Of a DNA stretch of 32,429 bases, positions 1-25,652 are shown piece by piece (position 1 is the first letter of the stretch; each line of letters opens with the position of its first letter). The DNA is from a virus. Taxonomy: Duplodnaviria > Heunggongvirae > Uroviricota > Caudoviricetes. Under the pieces are notes generated by a model, which saw nothing but the letters and a program-made list of their open reading frames with translations, made no database searches and was not told where the DNA came from. A program made the translations under genes and the position numbers. The stretch is from the IMG/VR virus record IMGVR_UViG_2531839528_000015. The stretch is one strand, 5' to 3'.

Positions 1-452
1 AACACCAGCAAACAGATAAAAAAGGGCCAGCCAATTGGCCAGCCCTTCTTAACAGGATGTCGCTTAAGCGAAATCTTAGTTAAGACGCTCCCAATAAAAC
101 CACATAAAAAACATATAATTATAATAAAAACAATTAGTTAATTTAATTTTTAATGCAGTGAATTGCAATATTCTGCAACCTCCGCCGCCACTTTGCCGCC
201 ACTTAAAGCTTTATACCACACAGACTTTAGTATACCCGAGTGAAACGCTAACACATGAGGTAGTTGGAAAATTTCCGTATATGTTGTAATATTGATACGC
301 ATTATATGATTTTTACCTGATATAATGTAATTATTAGCTTCAAAATTATTTTTGCACGAATCAGGTATTACCAAGTAGTTGTCAGTTTTTAAAAACCCAA
401 CATCCTAAAATTAGCATTGTTTTTTAACCACAAAACATCCACGGAGAAGAAC

Positions 453-1262
453 GTGTCAAAAAAGGATACAATCCAGATTATCGATATCAGGATGCAGAGA
501 CCAATCATAGCAAGAATAGAAGAAGAAAATTTAAATTTGACATTGCAAATGTCAGATAAAGCCACATTATCTGGTGCGACAGTTAGTTTTTTCACCCCAA
601 ATAACGTTTCTATATTCTTATCCTCAGCAAAAAAAGAGCTCTCAAAATCCAATTCTATATATAAAAGTCTTTTTGGAAAAATACACAAAACCAAACATAA
701 AAACTTTAAAATTTCCGACAAAGACCTGCCGAGACTCTATAATTACTTTGAATCAATTCAGACGGCCATTATTTCTATGTATACTGCAATTGAGTCTTTT
801 GCAAATATATGCATACCACATGATTATGTTTATGAAAAAAACAATGCCAAGGGAATCAAAGAATCCTATAGCAAAGAGCTAATTGAGCGATATATACCAA
901 CAAGTGAAAAAATAGATAAAATCCTACCGTCTATTTTAAATTGTGATTCGCCTAAAGGTTCAAAACTATGGCAAGATTTTAAAAGCCTTGAGTCACTTAG
1001 AAATGACATAATTCACCCCAAGACAACAAAGAAAAACACAGAAACAAAAGAAGACTCATCTTTTTTATGCATTTTACTATCAGATGACTTTATAAAAAAA
1101 GTTTCCTGTGGATTTGATTTGGTATCTTATTTTTGCAAACAAGACACTACTCATAGTCTTTTCCCAATGGGTTTCGGTGAAATTGAACTTAAACCTGTCC
1201 CAATTAAAGCCGGTGACTTTGAAAAAGTTGATGATCATGATGAAATAGAATTACCATCATAA
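453..1262 (+). CDS. Hypothetical AT-rich accessory protein next to the integrase 3' end, with a possible HEPN-like Rx4H motif
   Basis: ORF-track frame 417..1262 opens with TTG. An in-frame GTG at 453 is preceded by GGAG at 443-446, so 453 is the preferred start; the first in-frame ATG is at 492. Translation is Lys/Asn/Ile-rich, unlike the backbone. Motif R-N-D-I-I-H at residues 195-200 (nt 999-1016). Confidence 0.5.
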   Translation: MSKKDTIQIIDIRMQRPIIARIEEENLNLTLQMSDKATLSGATVSFFTPNNVSIFLSSAKKELSKSNSIYKSLFGKIHKTKHKNFKISDKDLPRLYNYFESIQTAIISMYTAIESFANICIPHDYVYEKNNAKGIKESYSKELIERYIPTSEKIDKILPSILNCDSPKGSKLWQDFKSLESLRNDIIHPKTTKKNTETKEDSSFLCILLSDDFIKKVSCGFDLVSYFCKQDTTHSLFPMGFGEIELKPVPIKAGDFEKVDDHDEIELPS

Positions 1263-1378: not shown

Positions 1379-2419
1379 TTAATCTTTCCATTTAAAACCA
1401 TTACATAATGTTAAAGGATTAAATGTTACAGCCTCCTCAAGATGATCCGGGGAGAAATGTGCATACTTCATAGTTTCACGAATATTCGCATGACCGAGTA
1501 TACGTTGCAGCACAAGAATATTCCCGCCATTCATCATAAAATGAGCGCCGAAGGTATGACGCAGAACGTGTGTCTTTTGCCCTTCCGTCAGTTCGATATC
1601 CGTTAGTTTGAGCATCTTTTTAAACTCCTGATAGCAAGGCTTAAACATCTTTCCCTGCCTTTCAGATAATTCGTCATACAACCATTTTGGGATCGGAACG
1701 GTTCGATTCTTTTTCCCTTTCGTTTTGGTGAAGGTCAGTTTATGTGGCGAGAGCTGGGGACGTGTCAACCTCTCAGCCTCACCCCATCTAGCACCTGTTG
1801 CAAGACAAATCTTAACAATCATGGTGAGGTCTTCTTTTCCGTATTGCTCGCATGCCTGAAACAATTTCGGAATTTGAGACAAAGTGAGCCAAGACATTTC
1901 TTTCTCGGCTTCCTTGAAAACACGGACTCCATCAAGTGGATTTGGTAAGCTCCACTCCCCTAGCCTTTTGAGCTCATTAAATACAGCCTCAAGATATTGT
2001 TGCTCACGATTGACAGTTATCGGTTTAGCAATCCATTTTGCCGGGTCTTTATGATAGCCATTATCTATCTCCCCCCGAAGTCGGCGGTCACGGTAATGAG
2101 CCCAATCTTTAGCAGTAAGGCGGGATGCAATAGGGTCACCAAGTCCATTACACACGATTTGAAGTTTAGCTAACCGCGACTTACTGGCGACCAGTGCCTG
2201 TCCGTGTAAATTATGCCAAAGCTGGATAATCTCACTTAAGCGTCGGCGGTCTTCTTTCTTGCCGAGCCACGGCTTATCCTCACTCTCACTTTTCGTAAAT
2301 GCTTCGAATGCCTCGGCCTCACCTTTGGTATTGAATTGCCGACGTATACGCCGCCCTTCTCGACCATTTGGATAGAGCTCGCATAACCATTTGCCATTTT
2401 TTTGCTTACTTACAGTCAT
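1379..2419 (-). CDS. int: Tyrosine integrase (P2/186 family)
   Basis: 346-aa ORF with ATG start at 2417-2419. C-terminal tyrosine-recombinase motifs HVLRHTFGAHF and LGHANIRETMKYAHF. Lies at the prophage end, transcribed the same way as the repressor. Confidence 0.9.
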   Translation of the reverse strand: MTVSKQKNGKWLCELYPNGREGRRIRRQFNTKGEAEAFEAFTKSESEDKPWLGKKEDRRRLSEIIQLWHNLHGQALVASKSRLAKLQIVCNGLGDPIASRLTAKDWAHYRDRRLRGEIDNGYHKDPAKWIAKPITVNREQQYLEAVFNELKRLGEWSLPNPLDGVRVFKEAEKEMSWLTLSQIPKLFQACEQYGKEDLTMIVKICLATGARWGEAERLTRPQLSPHKLTFTKTKGKKNRTVPIPKWLYDELSERQGKMFKPCYQEFKKMLKLTDIELTEGQKTHVLRHTFGAHFMMNGGNILVLQRILGHANIRETMKYAHFSPDHLEEAVTFNPLTLCNGFKWKD

Positions 2420-2788: not shown

Positions 2789-3649
2789 TTACACGTGTTT
2801 TTCCAATGTGAAAACTACAGCCCCGGCAGGAGTAATGTCTGTAATGTTGCATTCAAACTCAGCAGACTTATTTGACAACCTGACTTTTCCACCGGGCAAG
2901 CGAATTACATCAAAAACATCAAGAGCGCCGTCGATATCAATTAACCAGCGACCATTACTTATATTCGAAGCAGAACAGTCGACAAGCCAAGAGGCAGCTA
3001 CACCGTCAACAAAAATCAATTCCCCTGAGTTAGAAGGAATCATTGAGGGGTCAGGATGCCACGTTCCTGCATCCTTAAGCTCACCAGATTCAAGACGAGA
3101 TTTTTTAATAGAAAAACCAGATGTGACATCTTCCCTGTTAGCTCGCATTTGCCCCTTGCCTGTTGCTAACCATTCCAGTGACGTATCGGTATCAAGAGCG
3201 CATGTAACAACAACATCACCAGGGAAAAAATCTCGCCTTACCCATGTGCTAATTGTGCCAGAGGAAATGCCGAGCAAATCACCGAGCTCCTTTTGCATGG
3301 TAAAGCCATACGCATCAAGAATCCTACGCAAAACGGTTTTACCACCATTCGTCATAATCTCGTCATAAAGCTCTTTGCCTTTTAACTTGCAACTGGCTCG
3401 CTCGTGATTTGCATTTGCAAGTTCTCCATTTACAAGCCAATTGATATCAGCTCCCGTGTCAAGACAACACCTAACTATGACATTGCCAGGTATTGCATCA
3501 CGCTGAACCCAGCCGCTAACGCTGTGTTTAGCGATACCTAGCAGGTCAGCCAAATCCTTTTGCATCTTGACCCCATAGGCTGACATTAAGCGTTCCAATA
3601 CGCCGTTCGTTGCACTAACACGCCACTGAACATCAAGCTCAGAACTCAT
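2789..3649 (-). CDS. cI: Phage 186-type CI repressor with tandemly duplicated N-terminal HTH domain
   Basis: 286 aa. Two internally repeated segments align: GVLERLMSAYGVKMQKDLADLLGIAKHSVSGWVQRDAIPGNVIVRCCLDTGADINWLVNGE and TVLRRILDAYGFTMQKELGDLLGISSGTISTWVRRDFFPGDVVVTCALDTDTSLEWLATGK. They are followed by a CI C-terminal-like domain. No S24 peptidase Ser/Lys motifs recognised. Divergent from the apl-like gene. Confidence 0.8.
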   Translation of the reverse strand: MSSELDVQWRVSATNGVLERLMSAYGVKMQKDLADLLGIAKHSVSGWVQRDAIPGNVIVRCCLDTGADINWLVNGELANANHERASCKLKGKELYDEIMTNGGKTVLRRILDAYGFTMQKELGDLLGISSGTISTWVRRDFFPGDVVVTCALDTDTSLEWLATGKGQMRANREDVTSGFSIKKSRLESGELKDAGTWHPDPSMIPSNSGELIFVDGVAASWLVDCSASNISNGRWLIDIDGALDVFDVIRLPGGKVRLSNKSAEFECNITDITPAGAVVFTLEKHV

Positions 3650-5711: not shown

Positions 5712-7934
5712 TTGGCTGTTCAATTCGCTTATCCGTGGAACGTCCCACGGTCGGCAATCTCCAGCCCATACCTTACTTATGAGCAACAGCATCGCCGCGA
5801 CCGTATGTTCGCGGCTTTGCTGCATGCAAAAAAGGTGCTTTCTCTCCAGCCCGACTGCGTGCGGTTAGATGTTTATCGCACTGCTGCGGTGCTGGAACAA
5901 AATCAGGGTAGTCAACGAGCCAATGCATTTTTAATCAGCTTCTGCAAAAAGGCATTGCCGCGTCTTGAACTGGTCGCAAAAAAATACGAATGCGCTGGTA
6001 TCAACAGCAAGGTATCAACCGCTGTTTTTGGAAGTCATTTTGATACTCAGCAAATGCAATATCTGTCGTCACGCATGGTTAATATGGTCGCCCGATATAA
6101 CCGTCTCCCGGACATGTCGCGCGCTGATGTTGACCTGTTGGCCGCTGATATTGCTAATTTCATTCGTGGTGAACTTGCCAACATTAATGACCACGGATTC
6201 GGCGAGCTTAAAACGCTGTACACCTGGTATATTCGTGCTGGCTTTATTTCCCTCCAATTCAACGTTATCCCACCACATTGGGAGCGGGTTGAAAAAAAAT
6301 ATGTCGGTGCGGATGAAATCGCACCGGCTATCGCCAAAATGTTTAACGATGGGTGGTGGCGCGGTCGTTTGCGCCGTGTAGCAGCTACGTGGCGCGAACA
6401 CCTGCAAATTGCAGTCGGCAACGTCAGTAAGAAAAAAAACACTTACGCGAGTAAAAACTGCGTGACTGACTGGCGTGAACAAAAGCGCCGCACTCGTGAA
6501 TTTCTCAAAGGTCTGGATCTCGAAGACGAAGACGGCAACCGTATCAGCCTAATTGAAAAATATGATGGCTCAGTTGCTAACCCTGCGATTCGCCGCTGTG
6601 AGCTCATGACCCGCATTCGTGGGTTTGAAAACATCTGTAATGAGCTCGGTTATGTCGGTGAGTTTTACACTCTAACCGCGCCGTCAAAATATCACGCCAC
6701 GACTAAAGCCGGTTACCGTAACAGCAAATGGAGCGGTGCCAGCCCGGCTGACACGCAAAACTATCTAACCGGTATCTGGGCGCGTATCCGTGCCAAACTA
6801 CATCGGGAAGATGTCCGTATTTTCGGTATTCGTGTCGCCGAGCCCCATCACGACGGCACTCCACACTGGCACATGCTGATGTTCATGCTGCCGGAAGATG
6901 TTGAATATGTTCGCTCCATCGTCCGTAAATACGCATGGAAAGAAGACCGCCACGAACTGAAAAGCGATAAATCCCAAAAAGCACGTTTCCACGCGGAGTC
7001 CATTGACCCGGAGAAAGGCAGCGCAACCGGCTATGTTGCTAAATACATTTCAAAAAATATCGACGGTTATGCTCTCGATGGTGAAACCGATGATGAAAGC
7101 GGTGAGCTGCTGAAAGAGACAGCCCCCGCCGTTTCAGCATGGGCTGCGCGCTGGCACATCCGTCAGTTTCAGTTTATTGGTGGTGCGCCGGTGACGGTTT
7201 ACCGTGAGTTGCGTCGCCTCGCTGATACCGAAACCGCGCACGGTCTGAGCGTTGAGTTTGCCGCCGTCCATGATGCCGCCGACGCTGGTGACTGGGCTGG
7301 TTATGTTAATGCTCAGGGTGGGCCGTTTGTCCGTCGCGATGATTTACAGGTGCGCACACTGTATGAACCGCGTACCGAGCTTAATCAGTACGGTGAGGAA
7401 ACGGTATGTATTAAGGGGGTCTACGATTCCTCCATAGGTGCAGGAAGCCCGATTTTAACCCGGCTCACTCAGTGGAAGATTGTTCCGAAGCGTGCTGTTG
7501 ATTTGGCCGTTGACCTTCAGGACGGCAAAGCCGTCCCTCGGAGTTCTGTCAATAACTGTACGGGAAGCGAAAGCGATCCACCGATACTGGATTTAACAAA
7601 ACCACTGAGTCGGCGTGAAAGACGAGAATTGACCAACCGACTCAGGAAGCAAAAGCCAGCAGCACGGCGAAAATTCATCCACGGAACGGATGAGCAAAAC
7701 GCAGCTATAGCTAAAACTATCGATGAGATACATCTGACAACCGGCATTAATATCAGCCGGGGCGAAGCCCTGCACCTGATGGCCGGTGGTAAAAGTTGTT
7801 TTGATGGTAAATGGCTACGCGGAACGGCCAAAGGAGAAATATTTTCCGCAGCACCATCGCATGAGGCTAAAGCTCGGAAAATCCTTAATCGTGTTGCGGC
7901 GATGGCTGAAGCATCAAAACCAATACATGAGTAA
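5712..7934 (+). CDS. A: Replication initiation endonuclease (P2 gpA-like, rolling circle)
   Basis: 740 aa. HWHMLMF motif and the tyrosine pair in YVAKYISKNIDGY. TTG start at 5712 with GGGGG at 5701-5705, tightly coupled to the upstream stop. Confidence 0.88.
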   Translation: MAVQFAYPWNVPRSAISSPYLTYEQQHRRDRMFAALLHAKKVLSLQPDCVRLDVYRTAAVLEQNQGSQRANAFLISFCKKALPRLELVAKKYECAGINSKVSTAVFGSHFDTQQMQYLSSRMVNMVARYNRLPDMSRADVDLLAADIANFIRGELANINDHGFGELKTLYTWYIRAGFISLQFNVIPPHWERVEKKYVGADEIAPAIAKMFNDGWWRGRLRRVAATWREHLQIAVGNVSKKKNTYASKNCVTDWREQKRRTREFLKGLDLEDEDGNRISLIEKYDGSVANPAIRRCELMTRIRGFENICNELGYVGEFYTLTAPSKYHATTKAGYRNSKWSGASPADTQNYLTGIWARIRAKLHREDVRIFGIRVAEPHHDGTPHWHMLMFMLPEDVEYVRSIVRKYAWKEDRHELKSDKSQKARFHAESIDPEKGSATGYVAKYISKNIDGYALDGETDDESGELLKETAPAVSAWAARWHIRQFQFIGGAPVTVYRELRRLADTETAHGLSVEFAAVHDAADAGDWAGYVNAQGGPFVRRDDLQVRTLYEPRTELNQYGEETVCIKGVYDSSIGAGSPILTRLTQWKIVPKRAVDLAVDLQDGKAVPRSSVNNCTGSESDPPILDLTKPLSRRERRELTNRLRKQKPAARRKFIHGTDEQNAAIAKTIDEIHLTTGINISRGEALHLMAGGKSCFDGKWLRGTAKGEIFSAAPSHEAKARKILNRVAAMAEASKPIHE

Positions 7935-9764: not shown

Positions 9765-10769
9765 CTAATTTACATGTATGTAGAGTTCACCGTCGCCAGA
9801 CCAATCGGGACACTCTAAAACAAGCCCAAACTGCTTGAATATTTCATCAATGATTATTGTTATCTCCCGAAAATCACCAAAACCTGTAATGTGCTGGTCA
9901 TTAAACTTCCCATAAAGATTCTGAAAAGCAATGCCTAATTCTGATAATTGATATCTTATCTTTGAGTTGGATAGTGTAAGGGATAGCTTTGGATCGTATT
10001 CTTTAATATTGATGTTTAGAGAATGGACATAACCCATCGCATAAGCATAAGAGTTGATGATTAGCCTGATACGTTTTTTTACTTCAAGATACATGTCATT
10101 CAGAGAAATATTACCGTACTTATAACCCCAGATGAGTTTTTCAATCTCGTCAGATACTTCATTTACAACAGTGTCAAGATTCTCTAAAAATAAATCGACA
10201 GTTTCTTGAGGGGCAGACCCCGAAGACATGTAATTAGCGAGATATTCAGACCATGCACGCGTGGCTGAGATAAGAAGCGCGCTACCATACTCGTTGACTG
10301 TAAAGTTTTGGGCTAAGCATGTTAGTAAGTTTTTTTCATGTACGTGCACTAATTCATGGTGAATGCGATGGATGACTGCGAGGTATCCTTCTTCTTTCAG
10401 TTTTAAGAAGCTACCATCATTGAAAAGCTCAACAAAAAAATCAATCGATAGCACAAGGGTATATTCTTCATATAGCCCATCATTGCCAATTTTTGTTACT
10501 AACTGCCCGACGGCTGCGCCCTGTTTGCTATTGGTAAATGAACTAGGGGATTTGTGTTGGTAAGAGGATGTTACCTTTTGAAGAGCTTCACTGAAGTTAT
10601 AGGAAACAATCACGCATTTTAATTTGGAGATATCAAGATTGAGATTCTTTGTTAAAGCTCGGATAGCTTCTAGTGTGAAATTACCGATATTATTTGCTTC
10701 TTGCTCAGTAGCGAAACCTTCGAGGGTTATTTTAAAATCAGTTTCCAAAATATTAATCTCCGCGCCCAT
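9765..10769 (-). CDS. Hypothetical AT-rich 334-aa protein with an HExxH motif, between cos and Q (candidate defence or exclusion cargo)
   Basis: ATG at 10767-10769. Asn/Ile/Leu/Glu-rich translation. HRIHHELVHVHE at residues 134-145 (nt 10344-10358). No Walker A motif and no transmembrane segment seen. Confidence 0.7.
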   Translation of the reverse strand: MGAEINILETDFKITLEGFATEQEANNIGNFTLEAIRALTKNLNLDISKLKCVIVSYNFSEALQKVTSSYQHKSPSSFTNSKQGAAVGQLVTKIGNDGLYEEYTLVLSIDFFVELFNDGSFLKLKEEGYLAVIHRIHHELVHVHEKNLLTCLAQNFTVNEYGSALLISATRAWSEYLANYMSSGSAPQETVDLFLENLDTVVNEVSDEIEKLIWGYKYGNISLNDMYLEVKKRIRLIINSYAYAMGYVHSLNINIKEYDPKLSLTLSNSKIRYQLSELGIAFQNLYGKFNDQHITGFGDFREITIIIDEIFKQFGLVLECPDWSGDGELYIHVN

Positions 10770-10846: not shown

Positions 10847-11893
10847 TTATTCTGGGTTGTCGAGGGTGTACTCTTTGAATCTGATGACCTCCATGCCGAG
10901 CCAGTCATTTACCTCCCTGAACCTGTCCTGTAGCGGCGACAGCTCGTTGCGCACAAATACCTTTGCCACCTTCTCAACATCACCGAGTGAACCGATATTC
11001 TCGGGCTTGCCGCCCATGAGCTGGAACGGTACGCGGTGCGCGTCCATCAGATCGGCGGCACTGGCCTTCTTGATGTTGAAAAAGTCATCCTTTGTGGCGA
11101 CCTCGCTCAGTGGCACGATTTTGATGCCGTCCGGTTTTCCGCCGGGAGCGTAGAAAAACAGGTTCTTAAAGTTGCCGAGCCCTTTTGAGTTGCGCATCGC
11201 CTCGCGCAGCGATTCGACGTCGGTCGCGCTCTGCGCCGGGTCAGTCACATACATGATGTAGCCTGCGTGCGCGCCGTTCTGATAATACTTGCGGCGGAAC
11301 AGCGTCGCGGATTCATTCAGCCAAGCGGAATTAAGCGCGCTGAGATATTCCGGCAGACCGTAAATCTCCTGATTAATGTCGGGCTCCAGCAGGTGAAACA
11401 CGGTATCAGGCGCGAACTCGTGCGGCTGGGTGAAGTTTTCCACAAACCAGAAAATCGAATCGTCGACTCCGCGTCGGGTGTATTTGGCTGGCGAGGCCAG
11501 CAGTTTGATTAACTGGCCGGTGACGCTGTGGCGCTGCTCAAGAAAGGCGTTACCGAACACCAGATAATCGAGCGCAAAGCGGCTGAAATCCTGACGGGAT
11601 AACAACGGGTGCGGAATGTAGGTGCTCGCGAGCACGTTACGCTTAACATAAATTGGCGAGCTGTGATGCACGGCAGAGCGCAGGCTCTTTGCCAGCCCTG
11701 AGAAGCTGACCGGCGGCTCGTACCATTTGCCGTTACTGATGCACTCGACGTAATCCAGAATGTCGCGCTTATCGAGTACCGGCACCGGCTCGCCGAAGGT
11801 GAACGCTGTCGTTTTTGGCGGTGCGCTGGCGGTCAGTTGTTGTGGTTTGCTGGCCTTTTGTGCGTTGGCTTTACGGGATTTTTGTTTACCCAT
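10847..11893 (-). CDS. Q: Portal protein (P2 gpQ-like)
   Basis: 348 aa, the size and position of P2 Q, adjacent to and co-oriented with the large terminase. Confidence 0.9.
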   Translation of the reverse strand: MGKQKSRKANAQKASKPQQLTASAPPKTTAFTFGEPVPVLDKRDILDYVECISNGKWYEPPVSFSGLAKSLRSAVHHSSPIYVKRNVLASTYIPHPLLSRQDFSRFALDYLVFGNAFLEQRHSVTGQLIKLLASPAKYTRRGVDDSIFWFVENFTQPHEFAPDTVFHLLEPDINQEIYGLPEYLSALNSAWLNESATLFRRKYYQNGAHAGYIMYVTDPAQSATDVESLREAMRNSKGLGNFKNLFFYAPGGKPDGIKIVPLSEVATKDDFFNIKKASAADLMDAHRVPFQLMGGKPENIGSLGDVEKVAKVFVRNELSPLQDRFREVNDWLGMEVIRFKEYTLDNPE

Positions 11894-18726: not shown

Positions 18727-19156
18727 CGCTGTACCCCAGCTCAGAAACAACCCCGATATGCTGCGTCTTTTCGCCGACAACGGGCATATCGATTCCCGAC
18801 TGGCGAGCTCGCTGTCGTTTGAAAAGGTGTACGTGCTTAACATGGTGGTGACCGACTTTACCGGCGACCTCGATTTGATATTCGTGCCAGTGCAGGCGTG
18901 GCTGCGTGAACATCAGCCGGACATTATGACCACCGACGACGGGCGGGAAAAAGGATTCACCTGGATTATTGATATCAATAACGACGATTCGCTCGATATC
19001 AGTATCAGCCTGAGGCTCACCGAGCGCACGCTCGTCAAAGAGGTCGACGGCGCGCTGCATGTCAGCTATGCCCCAGAGCCGCCGCTGCCTGAGCCGGTGA
19101 CGCGCCCGGTCGAGCTGTACGTTAATGGCGAACTGGTGAGTAAGTGGGATGAGTGA
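18680..19156 (+). CDS. R: Tail completion protein (P2 gpR-like)
   Basis: 158 aa at the P2 R position. An alternative start is the ATG at 18689. Confidence 0.8.
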   Translation: MNSMQKHKSLRKALINAVPQLRNNPDMLRLFADNGHIDSRLASSLSFEKVYVLNMVVTDFTGDLDLIFVPVQAWLREHQPDIMTTDDGREKGFTWIIDINNDDSLDISISLRLTERTLVKEVDGALHVSYAPEPPLPEPVTRPVELYVNGELVSKWDE

Positions 19157-19604
19157 GTTAACCGCGCTACAGGAACGTCTTGCCGGTCTGATTGCCAGCC
19201 TGTCACCGGCGGCGCGTCGGCAAATGGCGGCTGACATTGCAAAAAAACTGCGCGCCAGTCAGCAACAGCGCATTAAGCGCCAGCAGGCACCTGACGGCAC
19301 CCCGTATGCCGCCAGAAAGCGCCAGCCGGTGCGGAGCAAGAGAGGCCGTATCAGGCGCGAAATGTTCGCCAAACTGCGCAGCACTAACCGCTTTATGAAA
19401 GCCAAAGGCAGCGACAGTGCGGCAGTGGTGGAGTTTACCGACAAGGTACAGCGCATGGCGCGGGTGCATCAGTACGGCCTCAAAGACCGGCCAAACCGCA
19501 ACAGCCGGGATGTGCAGTACGAGGCACGCCCGTTGTTCGGTTTCACCCGGGACGATGAACTGCTTGTTGAGAAGCTAATAATCGGAGCTATTAGAAATGG
19601 TTAA
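19149..19604 (+). CDS. S: Tail completion protein (P2 gpS-like)
   Basis: 151 aa at the P2 S position, overlapping the R stop. Confidence 0.85.
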   Translation: MSELTALQERLAGLIASLSPAARRQMAADIAKKLRASQQQRIKRQQAPDGTPYAARKRQPVRSKRGRIRREMFAKLRSTNRFMKAKGSDSAAVVEFTDKVQRMARVHQYGLKDRPNRNSRDVQYEARPLFGFTRDDELLVEKLIIGAIRNG

Positions 19605-19656
19605 TTAACAAAAGCATGCTAACTCTTGACAATTTGACAACTAGAGTGCACCCTAA

Positions 19657-19682
19657 CGCCAGTCAATAGAGTGCGACTGGCG
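19657..19682. terminator. Stem-loop between convergent S and the pentapeptide-repeat gene
   Basis: Perfect 8-bp inverted repeat cgccagtc / gactggcg with a 10-nt loop. A weaker AAGATT-TT-AATCTT dyad lies at 19687-19700. No clean U-tract. Confidence 0.4.
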
Positions 19683-19721
19683 TCAAGGAAGATTTTAATC
19701 TTTCTTTAGTGGTTCGATTCC

Positions 19722-20597
19722 CTAGCCTCGTAAATATCGTTTAGTAAATTTCGTGTTTGGTCTGGATGATAGGATTTGTCTTTCTATTTCACTATCACAG
19801 TCTATATAGTCTAGTGTATTAGCTTCTATAAGTTTGTTCACGTCAATATTTTTTGCATCGATTATGTTGGCATTTCTAAGGTTTGCATTGGTGTATTCCA
19901 CTTTATCCAAATCACACTCTCTGAGTACGCAACTTTTCATTTCCGCATTGGAAAAATCCCCACCATATAAATAGCAGCCTTCAAAAATAACACCGTTTAA
20001 CTTTGAATCCTGAGCTTTAATATTTTTTATTTTACACTTTATAAATTTTACGTTTTTCATTTTGCTCTTGCTAATATTTAATGCCTGGATTGTACATCCA
20101 GTGAAAGAACAGTCTCTTATGTTAGATTTTTCCATATTTAACCCAGATAGTTCTGAGGTTTTAAAGTGTAAGTATTTAATGGTAAAAAGGTCACCCAACT
20201 CCATTCTGGGTATGTCTATATTGAAGACACCTTTATTGTTGAGCTGTCTTATTATTTTTATTTTTTGTATTTTCAAATCAACATTAACGTGCTTAGCTAA
20301 GTTTCCCAAATCCTCAAGAAGTTCATTAATCGTTTCTTTGTTTTGTCTTCTGTATTCAAAGTAATAAAGGATGACACCTAATACAAAAAAATCCAAAATG
20401 GATGAATTTGCATTTATTAGGAACCCAGACAGGAATGAATCATTGTAATTACCATAGTGTATAGAGGCAAGTGTTACGCCAAATGCATATAAAATAAAAA
20501 TAATAAACACGTGCTTCATTTTGCATAAGGATTGTATTATTGGTTTTATGGCATCAATTTTGTTCATTGCTGCAGCAGCGAAAGATTTAAAAGTCAT
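19722..20597 (-). CDS. Membrane-anchored pentapeptide-repeat protein (AT-rich moron at the P2 orf30 position between S and V)
   Basis: 291 aa. Two hydrophobic helices (VFIIFILYAFGVTLASI and ILDFFVLGVILYYF), then pentapeptide-repeat-like sequence (NISKSKMKNVKFIKCKIKNIKAQDSKLNGVIFEGCYLYGGDFSNAEMKSCVLRECDLDKVEYTNANLRNANII). Opposite strand to both neighbours. Confidence 0.7.
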   Translation of the reverse strand: MTFKSFAAAAMNKIDAIKPIIQSLCKMKHVFIIFILYAFGVTLASIHYGNYNDSFLSGFLINANSSILDFFVLGVILYYFEYRRQNKETINELLEDLGNLAKHVNVDLKIQKIKIIRQLNNKGVFNIDIPRMELGDLFTIKYLHFKTSELSGLNMEKSNIRDCSFTGCTIQALNISKSKMKNVKFIKCKIKNIKAQDSKLNGVIFEGCYLYGGDFSNAEMKSCVLRECDLDKVEYTNANLRNANIIDAKNIDVNKLIEANTLDYIDCDSEIERQILSSRPNTKFTKRYLRG

Positions 20598-20750
20598 TCT
20601 ATTTTTAATGCATTCAGATTAAATGGGATTGATGATTTTTACGTGCCCAATGATGCGTGTCAATCAGATCTTTGAAAGTGTCTTGCTGTGTGAGCCCCTT
20701 TCCAATCCCGAAGTTTTGTCTGCAATGAAAAGAAGCGGCATGCTTACATA

Positions 20751-21386
20751 ATGAATACATCAAATATCATTCAAGAGCTTGCCCGTGCAATACGCAACCT
20801 CATTCGCACAGGGGTGGTGACTGAGGTCGATACCGTGCAGGGGCTGTGCCGTGTACAAAGCGGCGGGATCCAGACTACATGGCTGAACTGGCTGACCACC
20901 CGAGCCGGTCGTTCGCGGACGTGGTGGGCTCCCTCGGTCGGTGAGCAGGTTCTGCTGCTGGCAATCGGTGGCGAGCTTGATACCGCTTTCGTGCTGCCGG
21001 GTATTTTCTCCGACGATAACCCCGCCCCGTCTGCCTCGGCGGATGCGTGGCATGTGGCTTTCCCTGATGGTGCGGTCATTGAGTACGAGCCCGAGGCCGG
21101 CGCGCTGACGGCCAGCGGTATCAAAACTGCCGACGTGACGGCATCGGAGTCCATCACTGCAACCGTACCGCTGGTACTGGTGAAAGCCTCGACCAGTATC
21201 ACCCTCGACACCCCGGAGGTGATTTGCACCAATAAGCTGACGACAGCGACGCTTGAGGTACAAAAAGGCGGCAAGATGAGCGGCAATATCGAACATACCG
21301 GCGGGTCACTGTCGTCTAATGGCAAGGTACTCCACACCCATAAACACCCAGGCGACAGCGGCGGGCAAACGGGGGCACCGTTATGA
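20751..21386 (+). CDS. V: Baseplate spike/assembly protein (P2 gpV-like)
   Basis: 211 aa, the size and position of P2 V. Confidence 0.9.
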   Translation: MNTSNIIQELARAIRNLIRTGVVTEVDTVQGLCRVQSGGIQTTWLNWLTTRAGRSRTWWAPSVGEQVLLLAIGGELDTAFVLPGIFSDDNPAPSASADAWHVAFPDGAVIEYEPEAGALTASGIKTADVTASESITATVPLVLVKASTSITLDTPEVICTNKLTTATLEVQKGGKMSGNIEHTGGSLSSNGKVLHTHKHPGDSGGQTGAPL

Positions 21387-24200: not shown

Positions 24201-24635
24201 GTGTTTTTTAGTCCATCTTTAAATATTTTTGTGAATCCTGCGCTTAAGGATGACTACATCAATGTAAATTCATGGCCAGATGATGCTGTTGAAGTTGATG
24301 AGCAGGTGTATATTGAGTTTTCCGGATTACCGCCGAAAGGAAAAATCCGTATCGCTGGGGAAAATGGTTTTCCTGCATGGTCTGAAATTCCACCACCAAC
24401 GCATGAGGAACAGATTGCCGCAGCCGAATTGAAAAAACAGCAATTGATTAATCAGTCCAACGAATATATGAATACCAAGCAATGGCCTGGTAAAGCGGCT
24501 ATTGGTCGTCTGAAAGGTGAGGAACTGGCGCAATATAATTTGTGGCTGGATTATCTGGACGCACTGGAACTGGTTGATACCTCCAGTGCTCCAGATATTG
24601 AATGGCCTACGCCTCCGGCAGTTCAGGCCAGATGA
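24201..24635 (+). CDS. Tail fibre assembly chaperone (Tfa, P2 gpG-like)
   Basis: GTG start with GGAGGG upstream. C-terminus ...LDYLDALELVDTSSAPDIEWPTPP matches the C-terminus of the convergent Tfa'. Confidence 0.8.
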   Translation: MFFSPSLNIFVNPALKDDYINVNSWPDDAVEVDEQVYIEFSGLPPKGKIRIAGENGFPAWSEIPPPTHEEQIAAAELKKQQLINQSNEYMNTKQWPGKAAIGRLKGEELAQYNLWLDYLDALELVDTSSAPDIEWPTPPAVQAR

Positions 24636-25200
24636 TATCCGGCGCGGTGCTGGTATCTGTTGCCGTCACCGCGTCAATGTAATCCAGCACGGCGTTAAGT
24701 CGGGTTGTTTCTGCCTGAGTCAGTTTCCGTCCGGCCTGTAATTTCAGCTGAATCAGACTGATGGAAGCCATTGCAGCATCAATCAGTGACTGGCGCTGTG
24801 CTTCTGCCGCTTCTACTGCGGCACCGTGTTGTGCCTCAGTATCTGTCACCCATTTCTCACCATCCCATTTATCATATGGCGTTAACGGTGAAATCGTGAC
24901 ATAACCGTCTTTGATGGCACCGATATAATCCACTGTAACAGCTGCGCCATTTTCGATTAAGTAAACAGTCTCATTGCGATGGTCTTCTTCATGGCTCCAT
25001 CCCTTACCTGTAAATACTGCCACTCTTCCCGGAATGTTTTCGCCAGGGTCAATACCAGTGGAACAGGCGGGCATACTTACGCCAGTATTAATATATTCAT
25101 CAGACCAGCCCGTATACTCAGATGTTTCAGCATCATAATAAAAACAACGCATATCGCCCGGCACTGTAGCCAGCCCATTTTCATCAAAAACAGGTTTCAT
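24607..25200 (-). CDS. Alternative tail fibre assembly chaperone (Tfa') in the inverted orientation
   Basis: 197 aa. C-terminus ...LDYIDAVTATDTSTAPDIIWPELP. Converges on and overlaps the Tfa 3' end. Confidence 0.75.
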   Translation of the reverse strand: MKPVFDENGLATVPGDMRCFYYDAETSEYTGWSDEYINTGVSMPACSTGIDPGENIPGRVAVFTGKGWSHEEDHRNETVYLIENGAAVTVDYIGAIKDGYVTISPLTPYDKWDGEKWVTDTEAQHGAAVEAAEAQRQSLIDAAMASISLIQLKLQAGRKLTQAETTRLNAVLDYIDAVTATDTSTAPDIIWPELPEA

Positions 25201-25652
25201 TATTTAGCCCTCACCAGAAAGTTAAATGCAATATTTCGCGGTCTGACAGCAACAAAATTCACACCATCACCCACAGAGTTACTGGTGAAATTAAATCGTG
25301 AAAATCCTGGCTGATTTCCGGCGATGCCATCATGAAAGTTAATTGCGTGTCCCGCACCTCCGCCTATATTCCCGGCAAACTGAGAAAAGTTTGTAGCTTC
25401 CTGCCAGCTTAATAATTCGCGACCACCGTCTGCACCTCGCCCGTCATCCCAGATACGAATGAAATCACCGCGGGCTTCAGGTAATACCAGCGAAGGAAAC
25501 ACTTTCGCCAGCACAGGATAATCAGTGGCAGAGAATTTCGCGCCGTTGAACTTCAAAAACACCATACTGGACCAGCTGTCGATTACAGTATTTGGCATTG
25601 CAGCGGACGGCCAGAAGAACGGAACGCCAATAGCTGGAGCACCTTCTCCCAA
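25200..25652 (-). CDS. Silent alternative tail-fibre C-terminal segment (Hv')
   Basis: 150-aa frame with no ATG (the track start is TTG). It opens LGEGAPAIG directly inside crossover site 2, and an in-frame stop lies just upstream, so it is expressed only after inversion. Confidence 0.7.
   Translation of the reverse strand: MGEGAPAIGVPFFWPSAAMPNTVIDSWSSMVFLKFNGAKFSATDYPVLAKVFPSLVLPEARGDFIRIWDDGRGADGGRELLSWQEATNFSQFAGNIGGGAGHAINFHDGIAGNQPGFSRFNFTSNSVGDGVNFVAVRPRNIAFNFLVRAK

Follow-up and report, generated by a model that had tools for sequence, protein, structure and literature searches.

A pentapeptide-repeat membrane protein and a linked tRNA-like RNA element form an accessory cassette between tail genes S and V of a P2-family prophage of Escherichia coli

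Introduction

What is an AT-rich gene of 291 amino acids (aa) doing between the tail genes S and V of a P2-like prophage, on the strand opposite to them, and does it act alone? Here we report a computational analysis of this locus in the virus record IMGVR_UViG_2531839528_000015, a stretch of 32,429 nucleotides (nt) referred to below as the window, which carries a 186/P2-like (P2-family) prophage of E. coli with highest DNA identity to 186, PsP3, Midge and EtG-type phages. A preliminary description of the window, made from its sequence alone, had located and described the open reading frame (ORF) accurately, and had proposed a membrane-anchored pentapeptide-repeat protein acting at the cell envelope or as a DNA mimic. 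We find that the gene is one half of a self-contained cassette of ∼1.1 kb with two convergent promoters, the other half being a small RNA element with a tRNA-like structure, and that this strictly linked pair is carried by mobile elements, patchily distributed and rare. If the pairing is functional, it would constitute an uncharacterised protein-plus-RNA module of prophages and small plasmids in Proteobacteria and Firmicutes, and would provide the first function for a class of tRNA-like RNAs not represented in Rfam.

A tRNA-like RNA element at the 3′ end of the protein gene

The preliminary description had noted a stem-loop region flanking the gene on the S side. The structure is present, but it is no mere flank; it belongs to a conserved tRNA-like RNA gene that is the constant partner of the protein (Table 1). 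This region holds GGTTCGATTCC, a consensus tRNA T-loop, which overlaps the stop codon of the protein gene. Twelve enterobacterial loci encoding proteins with only ∼47–66% identity were aligned over their 3′ flanks; the alignment displays in constant order a near-invariant ATTGACTTT containing a −35 box, an nAnnnT hexamer, a core ATAGAGGTnGACTGGTGTC, a hairpin in which the sequence varies and the pairing is kept, and GGGTTCGATTCCCTAACCTCG. The spacing of these parts describes a promoter geometry (−35 box, 17 nt, −10 hexamer nAnnnT, ∼11 nt, ATAGAG), with the −10 hexamer reading TATTAT, GATGAT or CAATAT in other copies. In the window the −35 region of the RNA gene is duplicated (19626–19641, plus strand), TTGACAAT being followed by TTGACAAC, and the second box lies 8 nt downstream of the first at 19634–19639. 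Given this duplication and the weak −10 hexamer, the RNA of the window may be expressed differently from that of other cassettes.

The fold of the element is supported by covariation. For 14 distinct copies, RNAalifold returned a four-way junction consisting of a 5-bp outer stem (GAGGU/ACCUC), a GAC-UGGU-GUC hairpin, the variable hairpin and a GGG-UUCGAUU-CCC arm. In this arrangement 90.8% of the cells are paired, as opposed to 45–54% when the 3′ partners are slid; the slid controls also stay at or below a covariation score of 0.117, compared with 0.184 here. Six pairs have changed on both sides, among them pairs of the long-range outer stem, and the resulting 12 double-change cells were reached by none of 500 shuffles. 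The outer stem is further supported by its replacement with GAAG/CUUC in a Yersinia copy and with GAG(U)GC/GCCUC in the window and its closest relative. Folding the window sequence on its own gave the same junction as the minimum free energy (MFE) structure, with that outer stem, a GAC-UGGC-GUC hairpin, a variable hairpin formed by AAGGAAGAU/AUCUUUCUU and a T-arm-like GG-UUCGAUU-CC. We assign the RNA to the plus strand, antisense to the protein gene, because the aligned copies contain 12 G-U cells against 3 A-C cells, and because the T-loop and the promoter boxes are oriented accordingly; thermodynamic z-scores were unremarkable on both strands and discriminate neither strand nor significance. 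A covariance model built from the enterobacterial copies (R1) has a single match in the window (64.2 bits, E 4.7e-14) and finds no element in P2, PsP3 or Midge. The structure can be described as a reduced cloverleaf, with an invariant UUCGAUU T-loop, an invariant GG in the loop of the small hairpin and a compensated 5-bp outer stem, in which the D- and T-stems are 3 bp long, a 7-nt anticodon loop is missing and CCA is not encoded. As judged from its sequence, the element is conserved and has a promoter of its own.

Two simpler readings of the S-side region were rejected. A genuine tRNA gene or a known Rfam family would have been expected to return a relevant match, and neither Rfam (E≤10) nor ARAGORN did so for the window or for the other enterobacterial copies. 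Intrinsic terminators were dismissed since the hairpins have no U-tracts on either strand, and there is no terminator-like site on the plus strand between S and V. Separately, several tmRNA- and tRNA-like 3′ ends in metagenomes (L035, L108, L116 and similar loci) contain an acceptor strand, GACUGG(U/C)GUC, a hairpin, a T-arm and …CUCCACCA; the GAC-UGGU-GUC hairpin may be derived from an ancestor with such a tRNA-like domain. We also observed that a 14-nt segment at the 3′, acceptor-like end of the RNA (GATTCCCTAACCTC) is present in three tandem copies in the Enterobacter cloacae cassette (L021 ∼3480–3560, and L029), which could be a footprint of slippage or recombination.

tRNA 3′ ends are common integration targets, and the element could be imagined as a tRNA-derived att or crossover site, or the relic of one, that moves the cassette without any functional RNA and leaves the protein to work alone. 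There is a precedent in phage P22, whose attP lies inside a tRNA-like gene (PMC8022706), and the position of the element at the cassette edge beside S, the triplicated segment in E. cloacae and a tyrosine recombinase near the module on a Bacillus plasmid would all fit. An integration site does not, however, account for the −35 box and fixed promoter geometry conserved upstream, nor for compensatory changes that keep four helices while the anticodon arm varies and the T-loop and GG loop stay invariant. The window contains no second copy as a direct repeat, no integrase is associated with the S-V slot, and in Paenibacillus the element lies on the other side of the gene. We therefore regard this explanation as quite improbable.

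Linkage of protein and RNA in near and distant relatives

The element was present at all 12 of the aligned enterobacterial loci of the gene. Three of these lie outside P2-like phages (at the end of a lambdoid prophage near umuDC, at a chromosomal site in Yersinia, and beside a P4-type primase), and the element therefore travels with the protein gene and not with S. Starting from the RNA gave the same picture: a search of IMG/VR with the RNA core alone found seven contigs, all seven with the gene in convergent orientation, and only 3 of 120 matches to a loose two-anchor pattern in metagenomes contained the full element, each of the three accompanied by the gene, the remaining matches being mostly tRNA or tmRNA 3′ ends. 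At the primase locus (L024, 3775–5819) the module copy is directly beside the P4-type primase (Zn_Ribbon_Prim, Toprim_3 and D5_N domains), and the module may also be carried by P4-like satellites.

The pairing extends well beyond the enterobacteria. Plasmid homologues in Acinetobacter and Psychrobacter, with 27–31% protein identity, are accompanied by weak R1 matches: one on an Acinetobacter pittii plasmid (16.7 bits), located and oriented as expected and accompanied by a separate TTGACT box and an outer stem of another sequence (AACGG/CCGUU), and two on Psychrobacter plasmids (12.9 and 19.8 bits) in the same position and orientation. On a Bacillus mycoides plasmid a convergent tRNA-like gene starts 39 nt past the stop codon and scores 46.2 bits with the Rfam tRNA model (RF00005, gathering score 29 bits); it has a 21-nt anticodon loop and is rejected by ARAGORN. 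The metagenome locus L155 has a convergent tRNA-like gene 39–40 nt past the stop codon (33.8 bits), and in two Paenibacillus genomes a homologous tRNA-like gene lies 128–160 nt upstream of the protein gene on the same strand (48.4 and 43.3 bits). These four RNAs share near-identical D- and T-arms and covarying acceptor strands, and their anticodon arms vary freely. Because ARAGORN assigns them inconsistent anticodons (Ser(tga), Ile(tat), Lys(ttt) or none) and their anticodon loops are abnormal (7–21 nt), we consider them tRNA-like rather than decoding tRNAs. No partner RNA was detected beside L154, a chromosomal homologue with 23% identity. Roughly estimated, bacteria have one tRNA gene in every 60 kb or so, and such genes are uncommon on 10-kb plasmids; repeated adjacency by chance is therefore very unlikely. 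Comparative sequence data thus indicate that the pairing of protein and RNA is ancient and has been kept from enterobacteria to Bacillus. Since the orientation of the RNA varies among relatives, it is apparently the RNA fold, and not antisense pairing, that is conserved. In the literature searched, no paper was found that connects tRNA-like RNAs to membrane proteins with pentapeptide repeats or that describes the protein-RNA module, and the module is also missing from Rfam and PADLOC.

In the enterobacterial cassettes the two genes overlap, the stop codon and last residues of the protein being antisense to the RNA gene. The normal stop codon is complementary to CUA in CCCUAACCUCG; mutation of this CUA lets the ORF continue through the T-arm. 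The variable C-termini of the family (…RG, …RGQGIEPNSVGKPT and …EVRESNPTQ among relatives), which in the window consist of a final RG followed by the stop codon, can be attributed to the antisense RNA gene dictating their sequence; the read-through tails …GIEPNSVGKPT and …ESNPTQ are antisense translations of the T-arm.

This overlap invites comparison with type I toxin–antitoxin (TA) systems. Classical prophage systems of this type, txpA/RatA and bsrG/SR4, have 3′-end overlap and membrane toxins, and like them the present cassette has a convergent small RNA, with a separate promoter, that overlaps the 3′ end of a membrane-protein gene on prophages or plasmids. The RNA could accordingly act purely in cis by pairing with the 3′ end or 3′ untranslated region of the mRNA and lowering its stability or translation, its fold serving only RNA stability or processing. 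Convergent overlap at all enterobacterial and Moraxellaceae loci, and a convergent arrangement with a common terminator region in the Bacillus plasmid and L155, would be explained in this way. In contrast, the two Paenibacillus RNA genes are upstream on the same strand and have no complementarity to the mRNA, those of Bacillus and L155 begin 39–40 nt beyond the stop codon, and the T-loop, GG loop and acceptor-like stem kept across phyla are not needed for antisense pairing. The proteins are also much larger, at 250–340 aa across the family and 266–291 aa here, 5–10 times the length of type I toxins (<60 aa), and have a folded cytoplasmic domain. On the definition of a hydrophobic toxin of <60 aa with an mRNA-pairing antisense RNA, assignment to type I was rejected, and a purely antisense mode of action seems to us unlikely. 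Type III TA systems (ToxIN, AbiQ) offer a different parallel, having a structured RNA beside the protein that it neutralises by binding, carriage on mobile elements and an abortive-infection logic. They differ in their tandem-repeat RNA array and endoribonuclease fold, as opposed to the one RNA copy per locus and the membrane-anchored beta-helix found here, and type III membership was rejected on these grounds.

Architecture and conservation of the protein

The two N-terminal transmembrane (TM) helices and the stretch of about 100 pentapeptide-repeat residues proposed in the preliminary description are borne out by hydropathy, repeat register, Pfam and structure prediction alike. PF13599 (Pentapeptide_4; 68.9 bits, 3.9e-19, gathering cutoff 38) and PF00805 (Pentapeptide; 47.9 bits, 9.1e-13, gathering cutoff 20.2) both match above their cutoffs, and residues 140–250 comprise 22 consecutive pentads in register, with a hydrophobic residue at every fifth position. 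A first AlphaFold run, based on close homologues only, modelled the membrane part poorly and was superseded by an AlphaFold2 model from a deeper alignment of 27 representatives down to ∼20% identity (m2df76f49ad7b; predicted local distance difference test (pLDDT) 92, predicted template modelling score (pTM) 0.80). In this model a TM1 helix (28–47) is followed by one long helix (53–100) that spans TM2 and runs on for ∼20 residues into the cytoplasm, then by a helix at 106–121 and by a right-handed quadrilateral beta-helix with capping helices. There are four lysine or arginine residues at the N-terminus, none in the 8-residue loop between TM1 and TM2, and many after TM2, a distribution from which the positive-inside rule predicts a cytoplasmic location of both termini and of the repeat domain.

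The strongest conservation in the family is in TM2 and the juxtamembrane region, not in the repeat domain. Across distant representatives Y51, F55, L60, N/E62, N/H64, S66, an acidic residue at 69 (27 of 27), G74, basic residues at 83–84 and a basic residue at 87 are conserved, and many of the conserved TM2 residues form a stripe on one helical face. This conserved acidic and polar face suggests that TM2 is more than an anchor. The linker and stalk stretch has no PDB match by sequence and no similarity to HalA, the Hailong membrane channel discussed below.

The DNA mimicry raised in the preliminary description is unlikely. A mimic of the Qnr, MfpA or AlbG type, protecting or inhibiting topoisomerases or other DNA-binding enzymes, is suggested by the best structural matches (Qnr, AlbG and MfpA) and by sub-threshold NCBIfam matches. 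These scores are far under the family cutoffs (Qnr 38.3 bits against 240, MfpA 28.5 against 360), and the matches reflect the generic repeat fold. Mimics of this kind are strongly acidic; the repeat domain here carries a net positive charge (+2 to +9, isoelectric point 8.2–9.2) in each of the 27 close relatives, is also basic in 24 of 27 distant representatives, and is tethered to the membrane. We consider such a role extremely improbable.

On the V side, the promoter-like region reported in the preliminary description contains a sigma-70-like promoter of the protein gene with 10 of 12 matches to consensus (Table 1). The same boxes are found in the Enterobacter hormaechei cassette, and other cassettes share a different conserved box, CTACACAA…TAT(C/A/G)AT. 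Expression of the protein from the lysogen would fit this promoter. The start codon is uncertain, as M1, M11 (20567) and M27 (20519) all lack a clear Shine-Dalgarno sequence; M27 is invariant in the family and many homologues are annotated from it. The RefSeq entry for the identical gene is WP_001394648.1, a “pentapeptide repeat-containing protein”.

Superinfection exclusion or abortive infection, the roles first suggested for the gene, are plausible. In the simplest form the protein would be a non-toxic exclusion protein (Sie/Imm-like) that blocks DNA entry at the inner membrane, its basic repeats catching DNA at the cytoplasmic face and the RNA being only a regulator or bystander. Prophage exclusion proteins are typically small inner-membrane proteins, and the inner-membrane location, the separate promoter and the prophage accessory slot agree with such a role. 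It leaves unexplained, however, why a tRNA-like partner has been conserved from Enterobacterales to Bacillales and why the family also occurs on small non-phage plasmids and chromosomes; most of the protein is cytoplasmic and not periplasmic, and the acidic and polar face of TM2 again points to more than an anchor. We judge this rather unlikely.

A possible RNA-controlled membrane effector

We tentatively favour a module of mobile elements with two parts, a membrane effector and a tRNA-like RNA partner that neutralises or regulates it, so that loss of RNA control would result in defence or addiction; this is a working proposal that falls somewhat short of probable. The protein would be expressed from the lysogen and reside in the inner membrane, with its two-helix hairpin, polar and acidic second-helix face, cytoplasmic stalk and basic beta-helix, and would oligomerise as a pore- or channel-like, or otherwise membrane-disturbing, effector that is toxic when unrestrained. 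The tRNA-like RNA, expressed from its own promoter, would keep the effector in check, probably acting mainly through its fold, bound or sensed by the basic cytoplasmic domain, and not by base-pairing alone; we favour control through the fold since some relatives have an RNA without any antisense relation to the gene. If the RNA were lost, cleaved or sequestered upon infection by another phage or loss of the element, the effector would be released and bring about abortive infection, exclusion or post-segregational addiction. In the prophage, S and the RNA gene immediately downstream of it share a strand, and no terminator was detected between them; late transcription of the prophage itself could therefore raise RNA levels during its own lytic growth.

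One known parallel is the anti-phage system Hailong. According to a review (PMC13434031), HalA is a transmembrane tetrameric channel that is shut by oligodeoxyadenylate made by HalB, and a phage exonuclease that degrades this ligand releases the channel; the HalA properties used here were drawn from that review and from PDB entry 9nyi. The HalA equivalog model NF051894 is the top NCBIfam match of the protein, at 42 bits against a cutoff of 250, and the phmmer match to 9nyi (E 0.0043) covers the repeats only. No HalB-like nucleotidyltransferase was found in the window cassette or beside any homologue whose context was examined. To judge from alignment offsets, and in line with known repeat-then-pore fusions, HalA has its repeats first and its membrane part last, whereas the present family begins with the two-helix hairpin. 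HalA membership was rejected for these reasons, namely the score below cutoff, the repeats-only similarity, the missing HalB neighbour and the reverse domain order. The likeness would be one of logic and not of descent, as both appear to combine a membrane effector, a cytoplasmic pentapeptide solenoid and a constitutive nucleic-acid partner; the Hailong ligand is an enzyme-made oligo-dA, and the candidate ligand here is a genetically encoded tRNA-like RNA.

A more specific version of the proposed module, which we put forward as a speculation of low likelihood, is that the tRNA mimic, through the elbow formed by its T-loop and GG loop and through its acceptor-like stem, binds the basic repeats and shuts an oligomeric two-helix pore, and that a phage attack on the tRNA-like RNA opens the pore and aborts the infection. 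The triggers would then be phage functions by which the RNA is cleaved, modified or sequestered or its supply is cut off, and in 186/P2-like prophages a rise in RNA from late transcription could spare the phage's own lytic cycle. Such a module would represent an independent origin of a Hailong-like logic, in which the ligand is an encoded RNA and not a DNA signal made by an enzyme. Should the pairing prove functional, the concept of nucleic-acid-controlled membrane effectors, for which Hailong is the representative to date, would be extended to an encoded RNA ligand, and a tRNA mimic acting as sensor or antitoxin would tie tRNA-targeting phage-host conflicts to cell suicide at the membrane. 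As the module is small and self-contained, the hypothesis is directly testable by cloning.

Genomic context and distribution

Coordinates of the cassette and its parts are given in Table 1. The cassette has a GC content of 0.29–0.37 (∼30% in the ORF) compared with ∼0.6 in its flanks, and its limits were set from the alignment of the final ∼65 nt before V with the S-V intergenic region of the empty-slot phages Midge and PsP3. The neighbouring genes are of the P2 family by Pfam, with R (PF06891) and S (PF05069) upstream, and V (PF04717, PF18715), W and J downstream.

Table 1. Features of the S-V region in the window.
Feature	Position	Strand	Evidence or remarks
Tail gene S	19149–19604		Upstream of cassette
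Inserted AT-rich cassette	19605–20685		S stop codon to backbone upstream of V; GC drop, empty-slot alignment
−35 box of RNA gene (TTGACA)	19626–19631	+	TTGACT or TTGACA in 12/12 aligned enterobacterial loci
Candidate −10 of RNA gene (CACCCT)	19649–19654	+	Weak; only A2 and T6 match consensus; inferred
tRNA-like small RNA element, mini-cloverleaf, ∼68 nt	19664–19731	+	Covariance model, RNAalifold, MFE fold
Membrane pentapeptide-repeat protein gene	19722–20597	−	291 aa from M1
C-terminal cap and tail	19725–19847	−	Conserved L..A..LdY...D....P..K motif
Pentapeptide-repeat right-handed beta-helix	19848–20180	−	Residues 140–250, 22 pentads, net basic
Basic juxtamembrane stretch, cytoplasmic stalk (TM2 helix to residue 100) and helix 106–121	20181–20357	−	Model; conserved RR83–84, K87, L97
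TM2	20358–20429	−	Residues ∼57–80; signature N62, N64, S66, D69, G74
TM1	20451–20513	−	Residues ∼29–49; Kyte-Doolittle peak 2.0; helix 28–47 in model
Sigma-70-like promoter of protein gene	20635–20663	−	TTGACA 20663–20658, 17-nt spacer, AAAAAT 20640–20635; 10/12 matches
Backbone upstream of V, late pV promoter region, outside cassette	20686–20750	+	Marks right boundary
Tail gene V	20751–21386		Downstream of cassette

Comparison of the S-V interval upheld the view that the gene is no conserved tail component: the slot is empty, at ∼62–68 nt, in the closest backbone relatives 186, PsP3, Midge, EtG and Yersinia MHG phages. The gene had also been thought to interrupt a contiguous late operon, which the P2 reference record contradicts, since it shows a putative rho-independent O-operon terminator after S and an Ogr activator site and pV start before V; S ends the O operon, V opens its own Ogr-activated operon, and the gene sits between the two and interrupts neither. 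As for its being foreign to the P2 gene set, the slot is not foreign to P2, which has the non-essential Orf30 (NP_046770) in it on the opposite strand, in the same orientation as the cassette protein gene. Orf30 resembles the present gene as an AT-rich, non-essential type of cargo between the end of the O operon and the pV promoter; it differs in having no tRNA-like partner and no sequence similarity to the protein, and homology was rejected (best BLASTP E 5.1, Orf30 having no Pfam domain). The P2-like phage R18C carries yet another ORF at this position (PMC6823313). The S-V position is thus a known accessory site of P2-like phages, and the evidence supports a horizontally acquired AT-rich moron with its own promoter on the opposite strand. 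Other accessory loci of P2 (old/tin and Z/fun) are proven anti-phage hotspots (PMC9122126, PMC9519451). The P2 hotspot papers examined cover gpA-gpQ (old/tin), Z/fun and tail-CI and do not describe the S-V slot, so that we flag this slot (orf30) of P2/186-like phages as a further cargo site that is not listed in those surveys.

The cassette region is identical (100%) to the chromosome of four complete E. coli genomes (JKHS016, N21, E1535 and E1739), and a diverged variant of the gene is present in 14 more, giving 18 of 5,426 complete E. coli genomes. The close family consists of 27 clusters, all from Enterobacterales and named only “pentapeptide repeat-containing protein”; it is covered by PHROG 12514, whose function is unknown, and no defence-protein model in PADLOC-DB v2 matched at E≤1. 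An exhaustive search with the N-terminal module (residues 27–140, excluding the repeats) recovered 35 cluster representatives from 1.84 billion, nearly all of them 250–320 aa long with the module in the same position; the membrane module is accordingly very rare. A scan of genome contigs with the family alignment found only two loci, its peptide patterns being too strict, and single distant proteins used as queries had no match in the viral collection. Most of the enterobacterial members examined occupy the S-V slot of P2/186-like prophages in E. coli, Enterobacter, Edwardsiella, Yersinia and Klebsiella, and the neighbours on small plasmids include restriction endonucleases, a restriction-modification system and a RelE/ParE toxin gene.

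Some related proteins and loci show further domain associations. In an E. hormaechei prophage (L022, 1292–2239) the S-V slot holds two cargo genes, encoding an FRG-domain protein and the pentapeptide protein, and the distant repeat protein P0099 has an FRG domain as its fusion partner; together these observations hint at a functional association. Weaker matches confined to the repeat domain include fusions to TIR (P0044, P0054, P0073 and P0112) and to an Ion_trans_2 K+ channel pore (P0077, P0102 and P0104), besides the FRG fusion, and suggest that such pentapeptide solenoids are reused as a regulatory or sensor domain of effectors.

Other features of the window

Three further regions of the prophage merit brief mention. 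A 334-aa ORF at 9765–10769 (minus strand, GC ∼0.39–0.41) lies between gpA (5712–7934) and gpQ (10847–11893), in the old/tin anti-phage hotspot; it had no match in Pfam, PADLOC or NCBIfam and is a candidate for an uncharacterised defence gene. Just outside the integrase gene (1379–2419, minus strand), a 281-aa ORF at 417–1262 (plus strand, GC ∼0.32) had no Pfam or NCBIfam match and a weak HEPN-like match in PADLOC (RTasHEPN, E 1.3e-4), and may be prophage-end cargo or part of a neighbouring island. Downstream of the tail-fibre gene, ORFs at 24201–24635 (plus), 24607–25200 (minus) and 25200–25652 (minus) include two facing Caudo_TAP tail-fibre-assembly ORFs, the layout of an invertible host-range segment, and a related E. 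coli prophage (L015) has a frameshifted recombinase beside the same arrangement.

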